Source: a virus (Duplodnaviria; Heunggongvirae; Uroviricota; Caudoviricetes). From it: a DNA stretch of 28,227 bases. Made by a program: the position numbers and the translations under genes. Of this stretch, positions 3,464-12,398 are shown in pieces. Numbering within the stretch: position 1 is the first letter of the stretch; every line of letters begins with the position of its first letter. A model generated the notes under the pieces. The model had not been told where the DNA came from. It made no database searches and saw nothing but the letters and a program-made list of their open reading frames with translations. The stretch lies in the IMG/VR virus record IMGVR_UViG_3300045988_125232, positions 1 through 28,227 of that record. One strand, written 5' to 3'.

Positions 3464-4060
3464 TTAATGATTGTCGTAATAATTAATTGGCTCATCATTT
3501 TTTTGGTCTGGCATAGTTATGGACCACTTTATATTCTTTAGGCTGTTATGTTTTTTATTGACCTTAAGCTCTCTCTTTGCTTCAGAGATAATATCGTCTA
3601 GTAATACTTTTAATTTATCAAGTCTTGACTTGTGGGCATCTATCAACTCTATACTATCAAACTCCCATTGTATAAATAGATTTTCTTCATTTTCAATGAA
3701 TGAACGGATTTTATCCCCACACTCTTCTGTTAAGAATAATGAAGATAGCTCACCTATTCTACTGAGTTTTTCAAGCTCATTAGAGAAAGATTTGCTAAGG
3801 ATTTCATTTTCTTCTTTTGATTTGTAACTAAAGTAGGTTGGGAATTGTGAAGCGTGATGTAACTCATGTTTATACCAATAGTCAGCTGTGTTTTTTAGAA
3901 GATAAACACAGTCAACTAATTGCGTATACAAATCTATTCTTTTGTCCCACCATTTTTCTTTATAATAACGGCCGAGTGCATATCGCGCAGTTAAGTAAGC
4001 TGCGATTGAGCCTGTAACAAGTCCGATAATTACCTTTGATATAAGGTCATGCCAATCCAT
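3464..4060 (-). CDS. Membrane-anchored protein of unknown function (moron; candidate lysogen-expressed exclusion or abortive-infection factor)
   Basis: 198-aa ORF with one N-terminal hydrophobic helix (VIIGLVTGSIAAYLTA), then a charged, Lys/Glu-rich helical body. Visibly AT-rich compared with flanking phage genes, with its own AT-rich upstream region and its own terminator. Confidence 0.7.
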   Translation of the reverse strand: MDWHDLISKVIIGLVTGSIAAYLTARYALGRYYKEKWWDKRIDLYTQLVDCVYLLKNTADYWYKHELHHASQFPTYFSYKSKEENEILSKSFSNELEKLSRIGELSSLFLTEECGDKIRSFIENEENLFIQWEFDSIELIDAHKSRLDKLKVLLDDIISEAKRELKVNKKHNSLKNIKWSITMPDQKNDEPINYYDNH

Positions 4061-4511
4061 TTTTATTTTTCCTACATTATGTTATATAATTGTTCATATC
4101 ATACAATTGTTGAGTATAGATGTCTCGTTATTCATCAACATTTACTCCTGTTAAATTAGGGGGAGTATGTATTAAAAATATTCATCTGGGTCGTCTAAAT
4201 ATTTTTGATAAACTAATAGCAATAACACTATCAATATTGCCTGCCCTCACGTCGTTCTTGCTCTCGCGCGATTTTTAACTAAACACTAGCAGGATTTATC
4301 ATGGTGCTACGCTACATTTACTTGTAGGGAGCTAAACAGATCATTGACGCTGAAAATATTCAAATTGTTAAAGAGCGAAGCGTCCTATGGGCGTTTTGTT
4401 GCTAACGAATCATCTTGGACTTCATATGCCCCAGGCGGCTACTTCGTGGACGTCCTGCCTGTTTGTTGTTTCTCTTGGGTACATTATGTATCTCAAAGGT
4501 ACATTGTCAAG

Positions 4512-4538
4512 TATAAAAAAACCTGCCGAAGCAGGTTC
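4512..4538 (-). terminator. Rho-independent terminator after the repressor gene
   Basis: Hairpin AACCTGC-CGAA-GCAGGTT followed on the minus strand by a run of U residues, immediately downstream of the repressor stop (4550). Confidence 0.55.
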
Positions 4539-4549
4539 ATAAACATTGA

Positions 4550-5224
4550 TTAGGCTTTGATTTTGTATCTTCTTGGTTTTCCTGAGAAAATCACTGTACC
4601 AATTATAGAGCAATTACCGTTGATCTTAATGTAAGGCTCAGGCCAGTTTGGGTTTAACGCTTTGAGATAACGCTGTGTCCCATCTTCTATCAACCTTTTG
4701 AAGGTGGTTTCACCTGTATCGTGCATCAATGCAATAACGTCGTCACCGTGGCAGGCAGGTACTTCAGGATCGACAAAAATCATGTCTCCCGGGCGGTACT
4801 CATCAATCATTGAATCACCTATCACCCGCAAGATATAAGTCATTTCCCCACAGGGGACAGGGCAGGGATACGTTTCTGCTGTGCTCAAATCAACCTCAGA
4901 ATATCCAACTTCTTTCCATGCTCCGGCCTGTACCCATGATATGACAGGGACTAATGTGATTTGTTTATTAGTGATTGAAACATCAGGTTTTTTTGTGATG
5001 TTCGTTGTCTGGTGTTCTTGATCGAGCCATCCGACAGGCAGGTCGAAACATTTTTCGATGTGTCGTGCCATGCTGTCACCGATATTTTTAGTAGCACCAT
5101 CTCCCATAAACCTGCTGGTCTGGGTTGGCTCGCGATCAATCATAGTGGCAAAGGAAGAATTCCCGCCAACACCATCTCTCAGTTTTCTGGCGTTAGACCG
5201 CCGGATGTCATGGATTGTTTTCAT
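4550..5224 (-). CDS. cI: CI-type prophage repressor (HTH plus S24 LexA-like autopeptidase domain)
   Basis: 224-aa ORF. The C-terminal domain carries the Ser/Lys dyad context (VIGDSM ... FKRL) and its end (LNPNWPEPYIKINGNCSIIGTVI) resembles P22 C2 / lambda CI. Divergently arranged against the cro-like gene. Confidence 0.9.
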   Translation of the reverse strand: MKTIHDIRRSNARKLRDGVGGNSSFATMIDREPTQTSRFMGDGATKNIGDSMARHIEKCFDLPVGWLDQEHQTTNITKKPDVSITNKQITLVPVISWVQAGAWKEVGYSEVDLSTAETYPCPVPCGEMTYILRVIGDSMIDEYRPGDMIFVDPEVPACHGDDVIALMHDTGETTFKRLIEDGTQRYLKALNPNWPEPYIKINGNCSIIGTVIFSGKPRRYKIKA

Positions 5225-5239
5225 AACGAAATTAAAACC

Positions 5240-5311
5240 CTTGTACCGTTAAGGTACAAGTATCTTGAAGGTTCATTTCAATCATGTAATATGTACATCG
5301 GAGGTACATAT
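5240..5311. promoter_or_regulatory. Operator/promoter region between the repressor and cro (three dyad-symmetric sites)
   Basis: Dyads read in sequence: CTTGTACC-N5-GGTACAAG, TTGAA-N7-TTCAA and ATATGTAC-N7-GTACATAT. A TAATAT -10-like hexamer and GGAGGT ribosome-binding site precede the cro ATG. Confidence 0.6.
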
Positions 5312-5314
5312 TGT

Positions 5315-5515
5315 ATGAAAGCGTATTGGGACTCTTTAACCAAAGAACAGCAGGGCGAGTTGGCCGGAAAAGTTGGCTCAACACCTGGCTACTTACGGCT
5401 GGTTTTCAATGGCTATAAAAAAGCCAGTTTTGTGCTGGCTAAAAAACTTGAGCAATGCACGTCAGGTGCAATTACGAAATCTGACTTAAGACCGGATATC
5501 TATCCGAAAGATTAG
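5315..5515 (+). CDS. cro: Cro-like HTH regulator (YdaS/Cro family)
   Basis: 66-aa product from an internal ATG with a GGAGGT Shine-Dalgarno; HTH-like segment and conserved LRPD motif typical of YdaS-type Cro analogues. The 167-aa ORF in the track is an upstream extension through the operator region. Confidence 0.7.
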   Translation: MKAYWDSLTKEQQGELAGKVGSTPGYLRLVFNGYKKASFVLAKKLEQCTSGAITKSDLRPDIYPKD

Positions 5516-5546
5516 CAGAACACTTTCAATTTTTAACCACAGAACG

Positions 5547-6116
5547 ATGAGGCTAATCGTGGGTAAGCATCACTGGAAAATAGAAAAACAGCCTGAGTGG
5601 TACGTGAAAGCTGTCAGAAAAACTATCGCGGCGTTGCCGGGTGGTTACGCTGAAGCGGCTGACTGGCTCGATGTAACAGAAAACGCTTTATTCAACCGCC
5701 TTCGTGCAGATGGCGATCAGATTTTCCCGCTGGGATGGGCAATGGTTTTACAGCGTGCTGGTGGCACTCACTTCATTGCTGATGCTGTGGCGCAGTCTGC
5801 AAATGGCGTCTTTGTGTCTCTTCCTGACGTCGAGGATGTGGACAACGCCGATATTAACCAGCGTCTGCTGGAAGTCATTGAACAGATCGGCAGTTATTCA
5901 AAACAGATTCGTTCAGCAATCGAAGACGGTGTAGTGGAACCGCATGAGAAGACAGCAATTAACGACGAGCTGTATCTCTCAATTTCGAAGCTGCAGGAGC
6001 ATGCAGCACTTGTCTACAAAATTTTTTGCATTTCAGAAAGTAATGACGCCCGCGAGTGTGCAGCTCCGGGCGTCGTGGCGTCGATTGCTTCTGGTTGTGG
6101 AGAAACTAACGCATGA
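5547..6116 (+). CDS. Putative CII-like / YdaT-like early regulatory protein (189 aa)
   Basis: Position immediately downstream of cro, same strand; assignment by synteny only. Confidence 0.5.
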
Positions 6117-6291
6117 ACAGTTTAACAACACACTACCGTCGCTCGCAACTGATTGCGCTTCCTGTACCGGGTGGAAAAGCGAAGGTGGAATATTGCTATG
6201 CAGTGAATGTACCAGGTGACAGGGAAATTGTAACCCACAGCTTTGCAGAGTGGGCTGTGGGTGATTTCAACCGGCAGAAGGAGACAGTCCT

Positions 6292-6471
6292 TTGCGACAA
6301 GTTAACCGCTGGTTCAAAGATCACTACGGAGTACCCGTCAGAGTCATTCGTTGGGAGCCGGAAACACAACGGGTTATCTACCTCCGCGAAGACTATGAGC
6401 ATGAGTGCTTCAGCCCGCTCGAACAGTTTCGTCGTAAATTCAGGGAAATAGAGGTCGGTCATGAGCACTAA
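6292..6471 (+). CDS. Small protein (59 aa, TTG start) translationally coupled to the replication gene
   Basis: AAGGAG ribosome-binding site 8 nt upstream of TTG; its stop overlaps the ATG of the next gene. The product (…[35 protein letters not shown]…) is more protein-like than the serine-rich tail of the overlapping 112-aa ORF. Confidence 0.35.
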
Positions 6472-7402
6472 ATTAACCGGCTATGTATGGGATGGTTGCG
6501 CTGCGTCAGGCATGAAATTATCCAGCGTGGCAATTATGGCCCGCCTGGCTGATTTCAGTAATGACGAAGGTGTGTGCTGGCCATCAATTGAAACCATTGC
6601 CCGTCAGATTGGCGCGGGGATGAGTACCGTCAGAACGGCTATCGCACGGCTGGAAGCAGAAGGCTGGTTAACGCGTAAGGCGCGTCGCCAGGGTAACCGC
6701 AATGCGTCGAATGTTTATCAGCTTAACGTTGCGAAGCTTCAGGCAGCGGCATTTTCTCAACTGTCAGATTCTGACCCGTCAAAATCTGACGCATCAAAAT
6801 CTGACCCGTCAAAATTTGATGCGTCGAAATCTGGCAAAAAAGCGGGTTTTCACCCGTCAGAATCTGGCGGGGATCCGTCAGTAAAATCAAAACATGATCC
6901 GTCAGATAAAAAAACTTCTCGTCCGGACGCTTCGCAACCGGACACGCAGACGGCTGAACAGGAGTTTTTAACTCGCCATCCTGATGCGGTTGTATTCAGC
7001 CCTAAAAAGCGCCAGTGGGGAACGCAGGATGATTTGACCTGCGCACAGTGGCTCTGGAAAAAAATCATCGCCCTGTACGAGCAGGCCGCCGAATGTGACG
7101 GCGAGGTGGTTCGTCCCAAAGAACCGAACTGGACAGCCTGGGCAAACGAAATTCGCCTGATGTGTGTGCAGGATGGTCGTACTCACAAACAAATCTGCGA
7201 GATGTACAGCCGCGTCAGCCGCGATCCGTTCTGGTGCCGTAACGTGCTCAGCCCGTCGAAGCTGCGGGAAAAATGGGATGAGCTTTCCCTGCGCTTATCG
7301 CCGTCCGTCAGCACGTACACCGAAAAACGCGAAGACCCGTACTTCAAAGCCAGTTACGACAACGTGGACTACAGCCAGATCCCGGCAGGATTCAGGGGGT
7401 GA
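6461..7402 (+). CDS. Replication initiator (O-like, N-terminal winged-helix DNA-binding domain)
   Basis: 313-aa ORF with an N-terminal HTH typical of phage/plasmid replication initiators (…WPSIETIARQIGAGMSTVRTAIARLEAEGWL…); a repeat-encoded low-complexity linker (DPSKSDASKSDPSKFDASKS) overlies DNA iterons. Confidence 0.8.
   Translation: MSTKLTGYVWDGCAASGMKLSSVAIMARLADFSNDEGVCWPSIETIARQIGAGMSTVRTAIARLEAEGWLTRKARRQGNRNASNVYQLNVAKLQAAAFSQLSDSDPSKSDASKSDPSKFDASKSGKKAGFHPSESGGDPSVKSKHDPSDKKTSRPDASQPDTQTAEQEFLTRHPDAVVFSPKKRQWGTQDDLTCAQWLWKKIIALYEQAAECDGEVVRPKEPNWTAWANEIRLMCVQDGRTHKQICEMYSRVSRDPFWCRNVLSPSKLREKWDELSLRLSPSVSTYTEKREDPYFKASYDNVDYSQIPAGFRG
6761..6845. repeat. Iteron array inside the replication gene (putative origin)
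   Basis: At least four tandem 15-bp units (TCTGACCCGTCAAAA, TCTGACGCATCAAAA, TCTGACCCGTCAAAA, TTTGATGCGTCGAAA), with further CCGTCAG repeats and A-rich tracts out to about 6905. Confidence 0.6.
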
Positions 7403-7404
7403 TC

Positions 7405-7893
7405 ATGAGTCTTTTGAATGAAGTTCAGAAATACATTGAAGCCCATCCGGGGTGTACTTCCGGAGACATTGCGGATGCTTTTGCAGGTTACTCACGGCAG
7501 CGCGTTCTGCAGTCAGCAAGCAAGTTACGTCAGAGTGGTCGTGTGGCTCACCGTTGTGAAGGGGATACACGCAGACATTTCCCGCGCCTGACTGAGAGAG
7601 CGCAGGAGGCGGAACCGCAACCAGTTCGTGAAACCAGACCTGTGCGCAATTTCTATGTCGGCACTAACGACCCGCGGGAGATTTTGTGCCTGACCCGCCA
7701 GGCGGAAGAACTGGAGTCCAGGGGCTTATACCGTCGTGCTGCAACGGTGTGGATGGCGGCATTCCGTGAAAGCCACTCCCAGCCAGAACGAAACAATTTT
7801 CTGGCGCGTCGTGAGCGGTGCTTACGGAAAAGCAGCAAGCGCGCTGCATCGGGTGAAGAGTGGTATCTGTCAGGGAATTACGTGGGGGCTTAA
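7405..7893 (+). CDS. Regulatory protein with a PerC-like C-terminal domain
   Basis: The C-terminal segment AEELESRGLYRRAATVWMAAF matches the conserved PerC/Pch core as I recall it; the N-terminal 60 aa look like a small HTH. AGGGGG ribosome-binding site 5 nt before the ATG (an alternative GTG start lies at 7399). Confidence 0.6.
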   Translation: MSLLNEVQKYIEAHPGCTSGDIADAFAGYSRQRVLQSASKLRQSGRVAHRCEGDTRRHFPRLTERAQEAEPQPVRETRPVRNFYVGTNDPREILCLTRQAEELESRGLYRRAATVWMAAFRESHSQPERNNFLARRERCLRKSSKRAASGEEWYLSGNYVGA

Positions 7894-8546
7894 TGAGTAA
7901 TAAATATTGCCAGGCGCTGGTGGAACTGCGGAACAAACCAGCCCATGAACTGAAGGAAGTGGGCGATCAGTGGCGCACGCCGGACAACATTTTCTGGGGA
8001 ATTAACACCCTGTTTGGCCCGTTTGTTCTGGATCTGTTCACTGACGGTGATAACGCCAAATGTGCCGCGTATTACACGGCGGAAGACAACGCGCTGGCGC
8101 ATGACTGGTCAGAACGTCTTGCGGAGCTTAAAGGTGCTGCCTTTGGTAATCCCCCATACAGCCGCGCCAGTCAGCATGAGGGGCAATACATCACCGGCAT
8201 GCGTTACATCATGAAGCATGCCAGTGCCATGCGTGATAAAGGCGGGCGCTATGTTTTCCTGATCAAAGCTGCCACCAGCGAAGTGTGGTGGCCGGAAAAT
8301 GCAGATCATATTGCTTTTATTCGCGGGCGTATTGGTTTTGAACTGCCTGTCTGGTTTATCCCGAAAGACGAGAAGCAGGTACCGACAGGCGCTTTCTTCG
8401 CTGGTGCTATTGCTGTTTTCGACAAGACCTGGAAGGGACCGGCAATCAGCTACATCGGGCGCGATGAACTTGAGGCATGTGGTGAGGCCTTTCTGGCGCA
8501 GGTTCGCCAGCAGGCGGAAAAACTGGTCAGGGAGATGGCGGCATGA
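7893..8546 (+). CDS. Phage DNA N6-adenine methyltransferase (Dam-type)
   Basis: Catalytic NPPY motif (FGNPPYS) with size and context typical of lambdoid orphan methyltransferases. ATG overlaps the upstream stop (TAATG); an alternative GTG start lies at 7860. Confidence 0.85.
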   Translation: MSNKYCQALVELRNKPAHELKEVGDQWRTPDNIFWGINTLFGPFVLDLFTDGDNAKCAAYYTAEDNALAHDWSERLAELKGAAFGNPPYSRASQHEGQYITGMRYIMKHASAMRDKGGRYVFLIKAATSEVWWPENADHIAFIRGRIGFELPVWFIPKDEKQVPTGAFFAGAIAVFDKTWKGPAISYIGRDELEACGEAFLAQVRQQAEKLVREMAA

Positions 8547-8869
8547 CGACGTTAACTCAATGCCAGCAGCAGGTGCTGGATATGCTGATTTCTTACCAGA
8601 AAGAGCGTGGCTTTCCGCCAACCAATCAGGAGGTGGCAACCATGCTGGGATATCGTTCAGTGAATGCAGCGGTGGAGCATCTTCGCGCACTGGAGAAAAA
8701 AGGCGTCATCACGATAAAGCGTGGTGTGGCCCGGGGGATAACGCTTCATACCGCGGTGAAGGACGACGACAGCGAGGCGGTCGGGATTATCCGCTCACTG
8801 CTTGCCGGTGAGGAAAACGCCAGGCTGCGTGCAGCCCACTGGTTACATGAGAGGGGTCTGAAAGTATGA
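8543..8869 (+). CDS. LexA-like DNA-binding-domain protein lacking the autopeptidase domain
   Basis: Residues 1-70 align well with the LexA N-terminal winged helix (QQQVLDMLISYQKERGFPPTNQEVATMLGYRSVNAAVEHLRALEKKGVI...RGI-L). There is no S24 domain; a short helical tail follows. Confidence 0.75.
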   Translation: MTTLTQCQQQVLDMLISYQKERGFPPTNQEVATMLGYRSVNAAVEHLRALEKKGVITIKRGVARGITLHTAVKDDDSEAVGIIRSLLAGEENARLRAAHWLHERGLKV

Positions 8870-9255
8870 AGCTGATTCTGCCTTTCCCGCCCAGCGTGAA
8901 CACGTACTGGCGACACCCCAACAAAGGGGCGTTTGCAGGTAAGAGCCTGATAAGCGCGGCGGGGCGCAAATTCCAGAGCGCGGCGTGTGCAGCAATAGTT
9001 GAGCAGTTACGTCGTCTGCCAAAACCAACGTCGGCACCTGCTTCAGTGGAGATCGTGTTGTTTCCTCCGGATAACCGGATCCGCGATCTGGACAACTATA
9101 ACAAGGCGCTGTTTGACGCCCTGACCCACGCGGGTGTGTGGGAAGACGACAGTCAGGTGAAAAGAATGCTGGTGGAGTGGGGACCGGTTATCCCGGAAGG
9201 GAAGGTCGAGATCACTATCAGTAAGTACGAGAAAACGGCGGGTGCAGCCGCCTGA
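8866..9255 (+). CDS. rusA: Holliday-junction resolvase RusA
   Basis: 129-aa ORF with RusA signatures (LPFPPSVNTYWRH ... RDLDNYNKALFDALT...W.DD), at the usual nin-region position. Confidence 0.9.
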   Translation: MKLILPFPPSVNTYWRHPNKGAFAGKSLISAAGRKFQSAACAAIVEQLRRLPKPTSAPASVEIVLFPPDNRIRDLDNYNKALFDALTHAGVWEDDSQVKRMLVEWGPVIPEGKVEITISKYEKTAGAAA

Positions 9256-9274
9256 TTAAGAGGAGAAACGAAGT

Positions 9275-10072
9275 ATGAATAATCTGATGGTCATTGATGG
9301 TATTGAAGTTCGTCGTGATGCTTATGGGCGTTACAGCCTGAACGATCTGCACAGGGCTGCCGGTTCTCTGGATAAGCATAAGCCTGCATTCTGGCTCCGC
9401 AATGAGCAAACTGAGCGTTTAATAAGCGAGTTGCAGATTTGCAACTCGGTCAATATAGAGCCAGTTAACGTTATTCGTGGCGGAAATAACCAGGGGACGT
9501 ATGTCTGCAAAGAACTGGTGTATGCCTATGCAATGTGGATCAGCCCGTCATTCCATCTGAAGGTGATCCGTACTTTCGACATGGTAACCAGCGCACCGGA
9601 AAAATTATCCGGACAGGCTGCTGACAAGATGCAGGCTGGTGTGATTCTGCTGGACTTTATGCGCCGGGAGTTAAATCTGTCTAACTCTTCAGTGCTTGGA
9701 GCCTGTCAGAAACTTCAGGAGGCTGTTGGCTTACCGAATCTGGCACCGCGCTATGCCATTGATGCTCCTGCTGACGCGCCTGATGGCTCAAGCCGCCCCA
9801 CGCTGTCACTGAGTGCACTGCTGAAGCAGTATGGTATCCGCCTTACGGCTAATCAGGCATATCACCAGATGGCGAAGCTGGGGATCGTCGAACAGCGCGA
9901 ACGATACAGCCGTACAGCGATTAACAACATCAAAAAATTCTGGTCGCTGACAGCGAAAGGCTGCATGTTCGGCAAGAATATCACCAGTCCCGCAAATCCG
10001 CGTGAGACGCAGCCGCATTTCTTCGAATCCCGATTCCCTGAGCTGTTAAAGCTGCTCGATACCGTTCATTGA
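9275..10072 (+). CDS. KilA-N domain protein (antirepressor-like, probable KilAC-type C-terminus)
   Basis: N-terminal KilA-N signature (GRYSLNDLHRAAG...KHKP..WLR...GGNNQGTYVCKELVYAYAMWISP.F); strong ribosome-binding site AGAGGAGA. Confidence 0.8.
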   Translation: MNNLMVIDGIEVRRDAYGRYSLNDLHRAAGSLDKHKPAFWLRNEQTERLISELQICNSVNIEPVNVIRGGNNQGTYVCKELVYAYAMWISPSFHLKVIRTFDMVTSAPEKLSGQAADKMQAGVILLDFMRRELNLSNSSVLGACQKLQEAVGLPNLAPRYAIDAPADAPDGSSRPTLSLSALLKQYGIRLTANQAYHQMAKLGIVEQRERYSRTAINNIKKFWSLTAKGCMFGKNITSPANPRETQPHFFESRFPELLKLLDTVH

Positions 10073-10073
10073 G

Positions 10074-11069
10074 GTGACCGTGAGAGCACTACTGACCCCT
10101 GAAATTGCCCCGCGTATGGGGATCGTATTGTTCAGACCAGGTTCAGAGCTGATGCCCCTGTTTATGCAGGGGCGTGTCCTGCTGGAGCCTGAGCCGGAAC
10201 GTTATTCATCTTTCGCCAGTGGTGCTGTTCCGGCGGCATCACAACCGCTGGCGGATGATCCTGACGTTCGGGCCGTGTTCCGCAATGAGGCAGTGATCCG
10301 TCGTGCTGGTGGCGTGGAATGTCTTGAAAGCTGGTTACTTCGTGAAAAAGGCTGCCAGTGGCCTCATTCCGACTGGCACAGCGAGAACATGACAACAATG
10401 CGACACGCGCCGGGCGCAATCCGTCTGTGCTGGCACTGCGATAAACAGCTGCGCGATCAGTTCACGGAACGGCTGGAATCAATGGCAACGGATAACTGTG
10501 CCCGCTGGGTGTTGTCTGTTGTGCGTCGGGATCTCGGTTTTGATGATAGTCACGTTGTGACAATGCCGGAACTGTGCTGGTGGCTGATTCGTAATGACCT
10601 GGCGGATGCCTTACCGGAAAGTGCAGCCCGTAAGGCACTGAGATTACCGAAGCCTGTTGTGCCGTCTGTCACCCGGGAAAGTGACCTTGTGCCTTCGGTT
10701 CCTGCCACCAGCATCATCCAGGATAAGGTGAAAAAGGTGCTGGCGCTGAAAGTGGATCCGGAGTCGCCGGAGTCTTTTATGTTACGCCCAAAACGTCGCC
10801 GCTGGGTTAATGAAAAGTACACACGCTGGGTTAAGACACAGCCGTGTGCATGTTGTGGAAAGCCTGCTGATGATCCCCACCACCTGATAGGCCACGGTCA
10901 GGGGGGAATGGGTACAAAAGCGCATGACCTCTTTGTGTTGCCTTTGTGCAGAAAGCATCACGACGAGCTGCATGCGGATACCGTGGCATTTGAAGAGAAG
11001 TATGGTTCCCAGCTGGAGCTGATATTTCGTTTTATCGATCGTGCGCTGGCAATAGGCGTACTGGCGTAA
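10074..11069 (+). CDS. DUF968-family prophage protein with C-terminal HNH/zinc-finger-like motif (YdfU-like)
   Basis: 331-aa ORF (GTG start) with C-terminal CACCGKP...HHLIGHG...LCRKHHDELH, located immediately upstream of Q as ydfU is in Qin-type prophages. Confidence 0.75.
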   Translation: MTVRALLTPEIAPRMGIVLFRPGSELMPLFMQGRVLLEPEPERYSSFASGAVPAASQPLADDPDVRAVFRNEAVIRRAGGVECLESWLLREKGCQWPHSDWHSENMTTMRHAPGAIRLCWHCDKQLRDQFTERLESMATDNCARWVLSVVRRDLGFDDSHVVTMPELCWWLIRNDLADALPESAARKALRLPKPVVPSVTRESDLVPSVPATSIIQDKVKKVLALKVDPESPESFMLRPKRRRWVNEKYTRWVKTQPCACCGKPADDPHHLIGHGQGGMGTKAHDLFVLPLCRKHHDELHADTVAFEEKYGSQLELIFRFIDRALAIGVLA

Positions 11070-11082
11070 GTGGAGAACGAGC

Positions 11083-11835
11083 ATGAACCTTGAAGCCTTA
11101 CCGAAATATTACTCCCCGAAATCTCCAAAACTGAGCGATGACGCACCGGCGACAGGCTCTGGTGGTTTAACGATTACGGATGTGATGGCTGCGCAGGGGA
11201 TGGTGCAGTCGAAAGCACCGCTTGGGTTTGCCTTATTCCTGGCAAAAGTTGGTGTTCAGGATCCTCAGTTTGCGATTGAAGGTCTGCTCAATTACGCGAT
11301 GGCACTGGATAACCCGACATTGAATAAATTGAGTGAAGAAACCCGGCTACAGATCATTCCTTACCTTGTGAATTTTGCCTTTGCTGATTATTCCAGGTCT
11401 GCGGCAAGTAAGGCTCGCTGTGAGCATTGTGCTGGTACTGGATTTCATAATGTATTGCGCGAGGTGGTGAAACACTCCAGAAGCGGGGAATCTGTTATCA
11501 AGGAAGAGTGGGTGAAGGAACTATGTCAGCATTGTCATGGTAAGGGAGAAGTCAGCACAGCGTGCAGAGGGTGTAAGGGTAAAGGTATTGTCCTGGATGA
11601 AAAAAGGACCCGGCTTCATGGCACGCCTGTTTATAAGATTTGTGGGCGTTGCAATGGAAACCGGTTTAGCCGTTTACCAACTACACTGGCACGACGTCAT
11701 GTCCAGAAGCTGGTTCCAGACCTGACTGATTATCAGTGGTACAAAGGATATGCAGACGTAATTGATAAACTAGTAACAAAGTGCTGGCAGGAAGAAGCAT
11801 ATGCTGAAACGCAATTGAGAAAGGTGACGAGATAA
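11083..11835 (+). CDS. Q: Late-gene antitermination protein Q
   Basis: 250-aa ORF with cysteine clusters (CEHCAGTG, CQHCHGKG, CRGCKGKG, CGRCNG) typical of Q-family zinc-binding antiterminators; followed by a promoter and terminator, then the lysis genes. Confidence 0.8.
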   Translation: MNLEALPKYYSPKSPKLSDDAPATGSGGLTITDVMAAQGMVQSKAPLGFALFLAKVGVQDPQFAIEGLLNYAMALDNPTLNKLSEETRLQIIPYLVNFAFADYSRSAASKARCEHCAGTGFHNVLREVVKHSRSGESVIKEEWVKELCQHCHGKGEVSTACRGCKGKGIVLDEKRTRLHGTPVYKICGRCNGNRFSRLPTTLARRHVQKLVPDLTDYQWYKGYADVIDKLVTKCWQEEAYAETQLRKVTR

Positions 11836-11895: not shown

Positions 11896-11941
11896 TTTCT
11901 CAACGATGGGCTTTGTATGTCTGCCGTTGATAATTTTCACG

Positions 11942-11968
11942 AACCCGCTGTTGAGCGGGTTTTTATTT
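11942..11968 (+). terminator. Rho-independent terminator (tR'-like)
   Basis: Hairpin ACCCGC-TGTTGA-GCGGGT followed by TTTTTATTT, downstream of the candidate late promoter. Confidence 0.6.
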
Positions 11969-12020: not shown

Positions 12021-12356
12021 ATGATTAATGCCGTTGAGTACAGATTACCGTTAGGAAATATCTCTCCAGAGAATCTTGACGCGTTGTCAGAGCTTATCGT
12101 TAAGCATTCCGATAAATTTAATAACTATGTACTTAGTTCTATTTCTGATGATGATATTCGATATTCTTACGATTACTACAATTTTGAAATCACAGAGATA
12201 GATGAATATGGGTTTCACTTTATAGCACCATATAGCTATTATGAAGGATGCGTTGACAATAACTTCTCAGGAGAGGTTGAAGGTTATGCAGAATACGAAA
12301 TCATTGATAATGAATTAGTCTTCTCTCTTGAGGAACTACCTTGGGATGTAAAATAA
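12021..12356 (+). CDS. Highly acidic small protein of unknown function (moron downstream of Q)
   Basis: 111-aa ORF with a strong AAGGAGG ribosome-binding site. AT-rich, bracketed by the upstream terminator and its own downstream terminator; Asp/Glu residues far outnumber basic ones. Confidence 0.7.
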   Translation: MINAVEYRLPLGNISPENLDALSELIVKHSDKFNNYVLSSISDDDIRYSYDYYNFEITEIDEYGFHFIAPYSYYEGCVDNNFSGEVEGYAEYEIIDNELVFSLEELPWDVK

Positions 12357-12367
12357 ATATCAATAAT

Positions 12368-12398
12368 AAAGGCCGTAACGAACGGCCTTTATTATTAT
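12368..12398. terminator. Bidirectional-looking rho-independent terminator
   Basis: Hairpin AAAGGCCGT-AACGA-ACGGCCTTT flanked by A-run and T-run. Confidence 0.6.

Follow-up and report, generated by a model that had tools for sequence, protein, structure and literature searches.

A KilA-N Domain Protein of the Lambdoid pR Operon With a Widespread C-Terminal Module Distinct From KilAC and BstA

Introduction

The gene at positions 9275 to 10,072 of the caudoviricete record IMGVR_UViG_3300045988_125232 raises the question of what a KilA-N domain protein does in the early region of a temperate-type phage genome. Two functions are readily suggested by its N-terminus, that of an antirepressor and that of a BstA-type abortive-infection protein. 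The original prediction favoured the antirepressor, based on a C-terminal half that was thought to resemble KilAC, and kept a defence role as the second option. Here, the gene, its product, and its relatives are described in the context of the window, i.e., the entire stretch of 28,227 nucleotides that was analysed. The protein proves to combine a KilA-N domain containing a hypervariable cassette with a conserved C-terminal half that belongs to neither of the two families.

The Gene and Its Place in the Early Operon

According to Pfam scans of the neighbouring ORFs, the window is a typical lambdoid early region. The int and xis genes lie to the left of cI, holin, lysozyme, and Rz genes are found beyond Q, and the pR operon follows the order cI-cro-cII-O-PerC-Dam-LexA_DBD-RusA-[KilA-N gene]-DUF968/HNH-Q, in which a CII/CP76 protein and an O-type replication protein are encoded upstream of PerC. 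The gene under study, its ribosome-binding site, and the reference points around it are located as follows.

4550-5224, minus strand: S24-type cI repressor (Pfam), about 4 kb from the KilA-N gene and on the opposite strand
8866..9255, plus strand: RusA Holliday-junction resolvase (Pfam RusA), upstream neighbour in the operon of the KilA-N gene
9261..9266, plus strand: Shine-Dalgarno sequence GAGGAG, 9 nt 5' of the ATG, seen in the sequence; a strong ribosome-binding site
9275..10072, plus strand: coding sequence of the KilA-N protein, ATG to TGA with the stop included, 265 amino acids (ORF list)
10074..11069, plus strand: DUF968 protein with Orf-like domain and HNH motif (Pfam DUF968, 272 bits; HNHc_6), downstream neighbour
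11083-11835: Q antiterminator (Pfam scan)

The reading frame is real, which confirms the initial observation. Homologues of its product were found in 3397 matches with E values as low as 1e-215, which places the ORF far beyond chance, and PHROG 129 is matched by all 265 residues of the protein from end to end (E = 5e-129).

The gene is tightly embedded in its surroundings. A gap of 19 nt, which holds the ribosome-binding site, separates it from RusA, and the start codon of the DUF968 gene lies one base past its stop codon. On the plus strand, no terminator-like site was found from RusA to the interior of the DUF968 gene, where weak ones occur. The single promoter match near the start of the gene (9256-9283, 9 of 12 positions) is at chance level, and the GC content equals that of the neighbouring genes without any anomaly. 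Thus, the search, which covered promoters and terminators, gave no sign of independent expression control. Likewise, the 5' end of the gene showed no repeat. Given the tight spacing, the missing terminator, the chance-level promoter, and the equal GC content, the KilA-N gene is part of the pR delayed-early transcript (nin region), and an independently expressed gene of the moron type is ruled out. The placement in the nin region, between RusA and DUF968 and some 4 kb away from the repressor gene, agrees with what had been predicted.

Two further members of the same operon deserve mention in their own right. The ORF at 8543..8869 (plus strand, 108 amino acids) encodes a protein that consists of a LexA_DBD domain (69 bits) with no S24 peptidase and is conserved in SfII, Stx2a_1447, and cdtI; it could be an uncleavable SOS-box binder during lytic growth. 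A protein of the PerC family (36 bits) is encoded at 7399..7893 (plus strand), after the O-type replication gene and before Dam. A relationship to the PerC/Pch regulators is possible, which are encoded by prophages and act on virulence genes of pathogenic E. coli.

The KilA-N Domain and Its Variable Cassette

The N-terminal KilA-N domain was correctly recognised from the outset, and within it a segment of unusual variability was delimited.

9293..9589, plus strand: KilA-N domain, residues 7-105 (Pfam PF04383, 92.2 bits against a gathering threshold of 23.8, E = 2.2e-26)
9365..9490, plus strand: hypervariable cassette at residues ~31-72, within the KilA-N domain (column entropy, 104 close homologues)

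The N-domain of P1 KilA is 47% identical over about 100 residues (BLASTP, E = 3e-20), and the alignment stops at residue 101. In the AF2 model, the domain reaches a pLDDT of ~90 and shows the layout beta-beta-alpha-alpha-alpha-beta-beta-alpha-alpha. Weak Foldseek matches link it to the fungal APSES proteins Mbp1 and PCG2 (1bm8, 1mb1, 4ux5), whose APSES domains share the fold class of KilA-N. However, these proteins are eukaryotic transcription factors, and the remainder of their chains is unrelated to the KilA-N protein.

Among 104 close homologues, the column entropy of the cassette amounts to 1.1-1.85 bits, compared with 0.15-0.4 in the rest of the protein and in its C-terminal half especially. 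At least four discrete cassette types can be distinguished, and in some variants a TQNLGVGSFNET repeat is present once, twice, or three times. SfII_46, SfV orf44, cdtI orf50, ST64B sb46, and Stx2a_1447_20 are the same gene in the same position between RusA and DUF968, and they differ from the gene in the window only in the cassette that fills residues 31-72. These residues correspond, as we take it, to the DNA-contacting helix-loop and wing region of APSES-DNA structures. From this correspondence, the cassette may set the target specificity of the protein.

A perfect 8+8 inverted repeat, GAGTTGCA-GATT-TGCAACTC, lies within the cassette at 9428-9447 (plus strand) and occurs once in the window. 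It was considered as an operator and dismissed as evidence for one, being a single occurrence within a variable cassette and found with a search pattern derived from the sequence itself. The repeat is probably due to chance.

The C-Terminal Half

Past residue 105, the protein gave no match in Pfam or NCBIfam. Its C-terminal half can be divided into three parts.

9611..9727, plus strand: helical hairpin, residues 113-151 (AF2 model), a putative dimerisation element
9728..9799, plus strand: extended linker, residues 152-175, with the conserved pattern LPxLxPxYAIDAP...GSSxPT; no regular secondary structure, pLDDT 71-86
9800..10066, plus strand: basic alpha/beta domain, residues 176-264, with the pattern KGxxxGKNxTSPxNPRETQPH(F/W); AF2 pLDDT 90-97

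The AF2 models are confident, with pLDDT values of 89.5 (complete protein) and 90.5 (C-terminal half), and the last domain, which corresponds to PHROG 6486, has the layout beta-alpha-alpha-beta4-alpha. In 80 relatives with 25-57% identity, Y160, R210, G233, and N235 are invariant, while P158, D163, S172, S173, T176, E244, T245, Q246, P247, and H248 are conserved in at least 90%. The C-terminal domain has a pI of 10.0 and a net charge of +7 (family median +5, range +1 to +10). Such a basic charge is expected of a nucleic-acid binder. A site for catalysis or ligand binding would be just as compatible with the polar residues that are nearly invariant (Y, D, S, S, T, R, N, E, T, Q, H).

Structural comparison of the full model with the PDB by Foldseek returned nothing below E = 0.35; the weak matches comprise winged-helix DNA binders (DnaD-N, RTP, PadR, and MarR types) and APSES domains. 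Against BFVD, nothing was found below E = 0.03. Three chance-level matches (E ≥ 0.58) were obtained in the PDB sequence search and none in the PDB profile search.

Comparison With KilAC and BstA

The supposed KilAC-like character of the C-terminal half did not survive comparison with the family. PF03374 gave no match at E ≤ 1 in the KilA-N protein and none at E ≤ 0.01 in the 80 relatives, while the positive controls P1 KilA and P1 Ant1 scored 112 and 106 bits, respectively. In hhalign, the C-half profile built from the 80 relatives aligned to the KilAC profile with a probability of 1.4%, the KilAC profile being a shallow one of nine sequences. Reciprocal HMM searches led to the same result: the best E value of the C-half HMMs against 41 KilAC proteins was 0.4, and the HMM of the KilAC set meets members of the C-half family only via a shared Rha N-domain. 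The KilAC identity is therefore rejected. What is shared is the design. KilAC-type antirepressors (P1 Ant1/Ant2) and proteins of the type Rha+KilAC also consist of a swappable DNA-binding N-module (Rha, KilA-N, and others), a helical linker, and a C-module, yet their C-module is of a different family.

The same holds for BstA, against which the original prediction already leaned. The PADLOC BstA HMM found no match at E ≤ 1 in the KilA-N protein, compared with 412.5 bits for the control, BTP1 BstA. The latter and the KilA-N protein gave E = 0.48 in BLASTP and a probability of 0.6-0.9% in hhalign, and the C-half HMM had no match in BTP1. Genomic position tells against the identity as well. The conserved place of BstA genes is 3' of cI, and lysogens express them (PMC8585504), whereas the KilA-N gene is found about 4 kb from cI, on the plus strand, in the lytic pR operon. 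The BstA identity is thus rejected, and profile comparison of the C-terminal domain with the two families leaves it in neither. The cognate anti-BstA DNA element aba, which overlaps the 5' end of its BstA gene, is functionally defined and has no searchable consensus (PMC8585504).

A defence of the BstA type would require the lysogen to produce the KilA-N protein, which would then detect an incoming phage by its replicating DNA and bring the infection to an abortive end. The following observations could be cited in its favour. The PADLOC candidate PDC-S22 matches weakly (E = 4.6e-6), over 38 residues of the KilA-N domain only, and nin-type regions can carry defence morons (PMC13043305). Set against these are the negative comparisons with BstA and a gene that sits in a lytic operon rather than downstream of cI, with neither its own promoter or terminator nor a shift in GC content. 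Taken together, such a function is very improbable.

A C-Terminal Module With Exchangeable Partners

The relatives of the C-terminal half reveal a family that extends far beyond KilA-N proteins. When residues 106-265 were compared by phmmer with 1.8 billion cluster representatives, 788 representatives were recovered as relatives, 383 of them with E < 1e-10, and 80 diverse full-length relatives were then examined. Their N-terminal domains were Rha (Phage_pRha) in 28 cases, Bro-N in 18, KilA-N in nine, ORF6N in six, AntA in four, and P22_AR_N in one; none of the 80 matched PF03374, ORF6C, P22_AR_C, or ORF11CD3. The shuffled network of phage early 'Bro/KilA/Rha/Ant' proteins is well known. Given the variety of N-domains, the C-terminal half is the constant module of such shuffled proteins, and the family belongs to this network as one C-module that is joined to alternative N-terminal modules.

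Members were found in Pseudomonas F10, Hamiltonella APSE, Klebsiella LASTA, and in Yersinia, Morganella, Vibrio, Paenibacillus, and Ruminococcus phages. In every context inspected, which covers all of these except the Vibrio phage, the gene lies in the early-gene region. The Pseudomonas, Hamiltonella, Yersinia, Morganella, Paenibacillus, and Ruminococcus members belong to early lytic operons of temperate phages; the Klebsiella member occupies the corresponding region of LASTA. Both Gram-positive members (Paenibacillus and Ruminococcus) lie directly 3' of cro. In APSE-2, three consecutive genes of similar class are found at 4171-6864, namely G, which contains the C-half, P43, annotated as 'antirepressor', and P42, annotated as 'Roi'.

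HK022 Roi and the Rha proteins of phi80 and P22 belong to the Bro/Rha class of accessory proteins, which lambdoid phages can dispense with and encode in the nin region, close to it, or in the late region. They reportedly bind DNA and hamper phage growth when the host is IHF-deficient. Roi and Rha were rejected as relatives of the C-half, since its HMM matched nothing in BTP1 or in the nin region of HK022. The Rha protein of BTP1 is composed of Phage_pRha and ORF11CD3, and the N-domains of Roi and Rha are also unlike that of the protein in the window.

Distribution and the Conserved nin Gene Order

Within E. coli, the gene is extremely common. It is carried by 2293 of 5426 complete genomes (42%), in up to four copies, under the annotation 'KilA-N domain-containing protein', and annotated genes that are 99-100% identical occur in phages as well as in E. 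coli genomes. At the DNA level, identities of 90-98% are reached with SfII (SfII_46), SfV (orf44), and many Stx2a and Stx2c phage genes, while the C-half as protein query matches the orthologues of cdtI (orf50), mEp460, and ST64B (sb46) at 88-99% identity. The labels of the orthologues ('KilA-N domain protein', 'transcriptional regulator') were assigned by homology, and literature searches found no functional study of the gene or of its C-half family. It is thus an already catalogued prophage gene that is labelled by homology only.

Six public records (P0002, P0112, P0135, P0137, P0140, and P0153) describe 'fusions' of the KilA-N protein, or part of it, with RusA, DUF968, baseplate J, Q, tail protein J, or SipB/SseC. 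They look like chimeras produced by frameshift, deletion, or assembly, and those with RusA, Q, tail protein J, baseplate J, and SipB were set aside as alternative architectures. In the window, the reading frame of RusA differs from that of the KilA-N gene.

The surroundings of the gene are conserved along with it. The order RusA-[KilA-N gene]-DUF968-Q is identical across the phages that carry the orthologues (SfII, SfV, Stx2, cdtI, mEp460, and ST64B types), RusA-[KilA-N gene]-DUF968 is also kept in Yersinia and Morganella phages, and the RusA protein of the window is 100% identical in SfII and Stx2a_1447. The DUF968 family is described as an Orf-like DNA-binding domain fused to an HNH nuclease motif (PMC4118853). 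From these data, a DNA-targeting accessory subunit could be envisaged that would join RusA and DUF968, the Orf-like/HNH protein, in a recombination module of the nin region. Several features speak for such a module: RusA, the gene, DUF968, and Q are kept in E. coli, Salmonella, Yersinia, and Morganella phages, with stop codons that adjoin or overlap the next start codon, the order persists even where the C-half is only 59-67% identical, and the three genes travel together between phages with different cI, O, and Q. DUF968 itself has been tied to recombination functions (PMC4118853). However, the members of F10, APSE-2, LASTA, and the Paenibacillus and Ruminococcus phages have no RusA or DUF968 neighbour, so that the synteny may only reflect the inheritance of a block. 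A dedicated role in nin recombination is accordingly improbable.

A different function is suggested by P1. P1 KilA (KILA_BPP1) likewise begins with a KilA-N domain, has 266 residues compared with 265, and is encoded by an early gene under repressor control. By analogy, the protein could be a host-killing or takeover factor that would be toxic in early lytic growth through the host DNA or a conserved host protein. The 47% identity of the N-domains is in line with this, as the record of P1 KilA states that its product can kill the host, and a host target that is conserved universally would be in keeping with a C-half so extremely conserved between Proteobacteria and Firmicutes phages. On the other hand, P1 KilA has the KilAC/ANT domain (PF03374, 112 bits) as its C-terminal half, in place of which the protein of the window has an unrelated module. 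The intact carriage of the gene in 42% of the complete E. coli genomes also points away from toxicity, though with little weight, as the gene is repressed in lysogens. On balance, host killing appears unlikely.

Immunity Type and the Antirepressor Reading

An antirepressor would bind and inactivate a CI-type repressor and thereby reinforce the induction of its own prophage or cross-induce heteroimmune prophages in the same cell. Relatives of the protein are frequently labelled in this way (F10 gp36, phiRg519T2 gp25). The AntA, P22_AR_N, Rha, Bro-N, and KilA-N modules recur in antirepressors, whether proven, like P22 Ant, or presumed, and the position of the Gram-positive members directly after cro is the usual spot of 'Ant' annotations.

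If the protein acted on its own repressor, its sequence might be expected to follow the immunity type, and comparison of cI with the KilA-N protein in the window, cdtI, SfII, and Stx2a_1447 gave no such relation. The cI of the window is 99% identical to that of cdtI, yet the KilA-N cassettes differ (86.6% identity overall, 98.8% in the C-half). In SfII and Stx2a_1447, cI is unrelated to that of the window, and the KilA-N proteins are 99.2-99.6% identical to the one encoded there. The cassette type does not track the cI type, and neither does the conserved C-half.

Other arguments point in the same direction. The C-half is not KilAC (PF03374), and it is strongly basic and nearly invariant across hosts with very diverse repressors. 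The gene is located within the pR operon, which means that its product is not made until the phage's own repressor is already inactive. The 'antirepressor' annotations of the relatives, moreover, derive from homology alone. The lack of immunity tracking, the location under pR, and the basic C-half shared across phyla all argue against an antirepressor directed at the repressor of its own phage. The label favoured in the original prediction thus found no direct support, and in the wider sense of a trans-acting factor, which includes heteroimmune prophages, the antirepressor function is rather unlikely.

Proposed Role

The most likely role is that of a delayed-early, DNA-bound accessory protein in lytic growth, and not that of an antirepressor or a lysogen defence; we put the probability of this reading at about one half. 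The domain architecture, the operon position, the pattern of conservation, and the separation from BstA and KilAC are shown by the data; DNA binding by either domain, dimerisation, the time of expression, and the biological role are inferred. The gene would be non-essential and delayed-early, and its product would be made once pR is derepressed and transcription reads through towards Q. The KilA-N domain, of the APSES type, is predicted to bind DNA at one site, with the swapped helix-loop segment of residues 31-72 probably determining the target, while the helical hairpin probably dimerises the protein. The conserved linker and the basic alpha/beta domain may form the constant 'business end', which is paired with interchangeable N-terminal DNA-binding modules. 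This C-module would supply the shared effector function, by binding nucleic acid or by contacting a partner that is itself conserved. As a whole, the protein would be a two-headed DNA-bound accessory factor that regulates or organises the DNA of phage or host.

A further reading can be formulated, according to which the 160-residue C-half is an undescribed effector domain and its polar residues mark a catalytic site or a site that binds a universally conserved target, either DNA or of the host. It is a speculative and unlikely proposal. If true, 'antirepressors' of this kind would form a functional class of their own among the early proteins of phages and might act together with the recombination genes RusA and DUF968.

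Other Loci in the Window

Two further ORFs, both with no Pfam or PADLOC match, were noticed in the window. The first, at 12021..12356 (plus strand, 111 amino acids), lies between Q and holin. Its GC content is 0.34 compared with ~0.52 around it, and it is flanked by terminator-like hairpins at 11941-11962 and 12361-12397. The interval between Q and holin is the location of the stx genes in Stx phages. This ORF looks like a classic moron.

The second, at 3464..4060 (minus strand, 198 amino acids), lies directly downstream of cI. Upstream of it, a terminator-like hairpin (4538-4519) and a sigma-70 match of 11 of 12 positions (4510-4483) are found. The site is the cI-N hotspot, the home of rexAB and BstA. 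Because it sits in this hotspot, this ORF, and not the KilA-N gene, is the candidate for a lysogen-expressed defence gene.

Conclusion

The KilA-N gene reveals no new kind of system. It is among the commonest E. coli prophage genes and is also found in Stx2-converting phages, yet a label by homology is all that it has carried so far. With the analysis of its product, two tempting annotations, the KilAC antirepressor and the BstA defence protein, are removed, which helps to stop the spread of wrong labels. In their place, a C-terminal module that is unnamed but widespread, with no family model and no structural neighbour in the PDB or BFVD, has now been defined.
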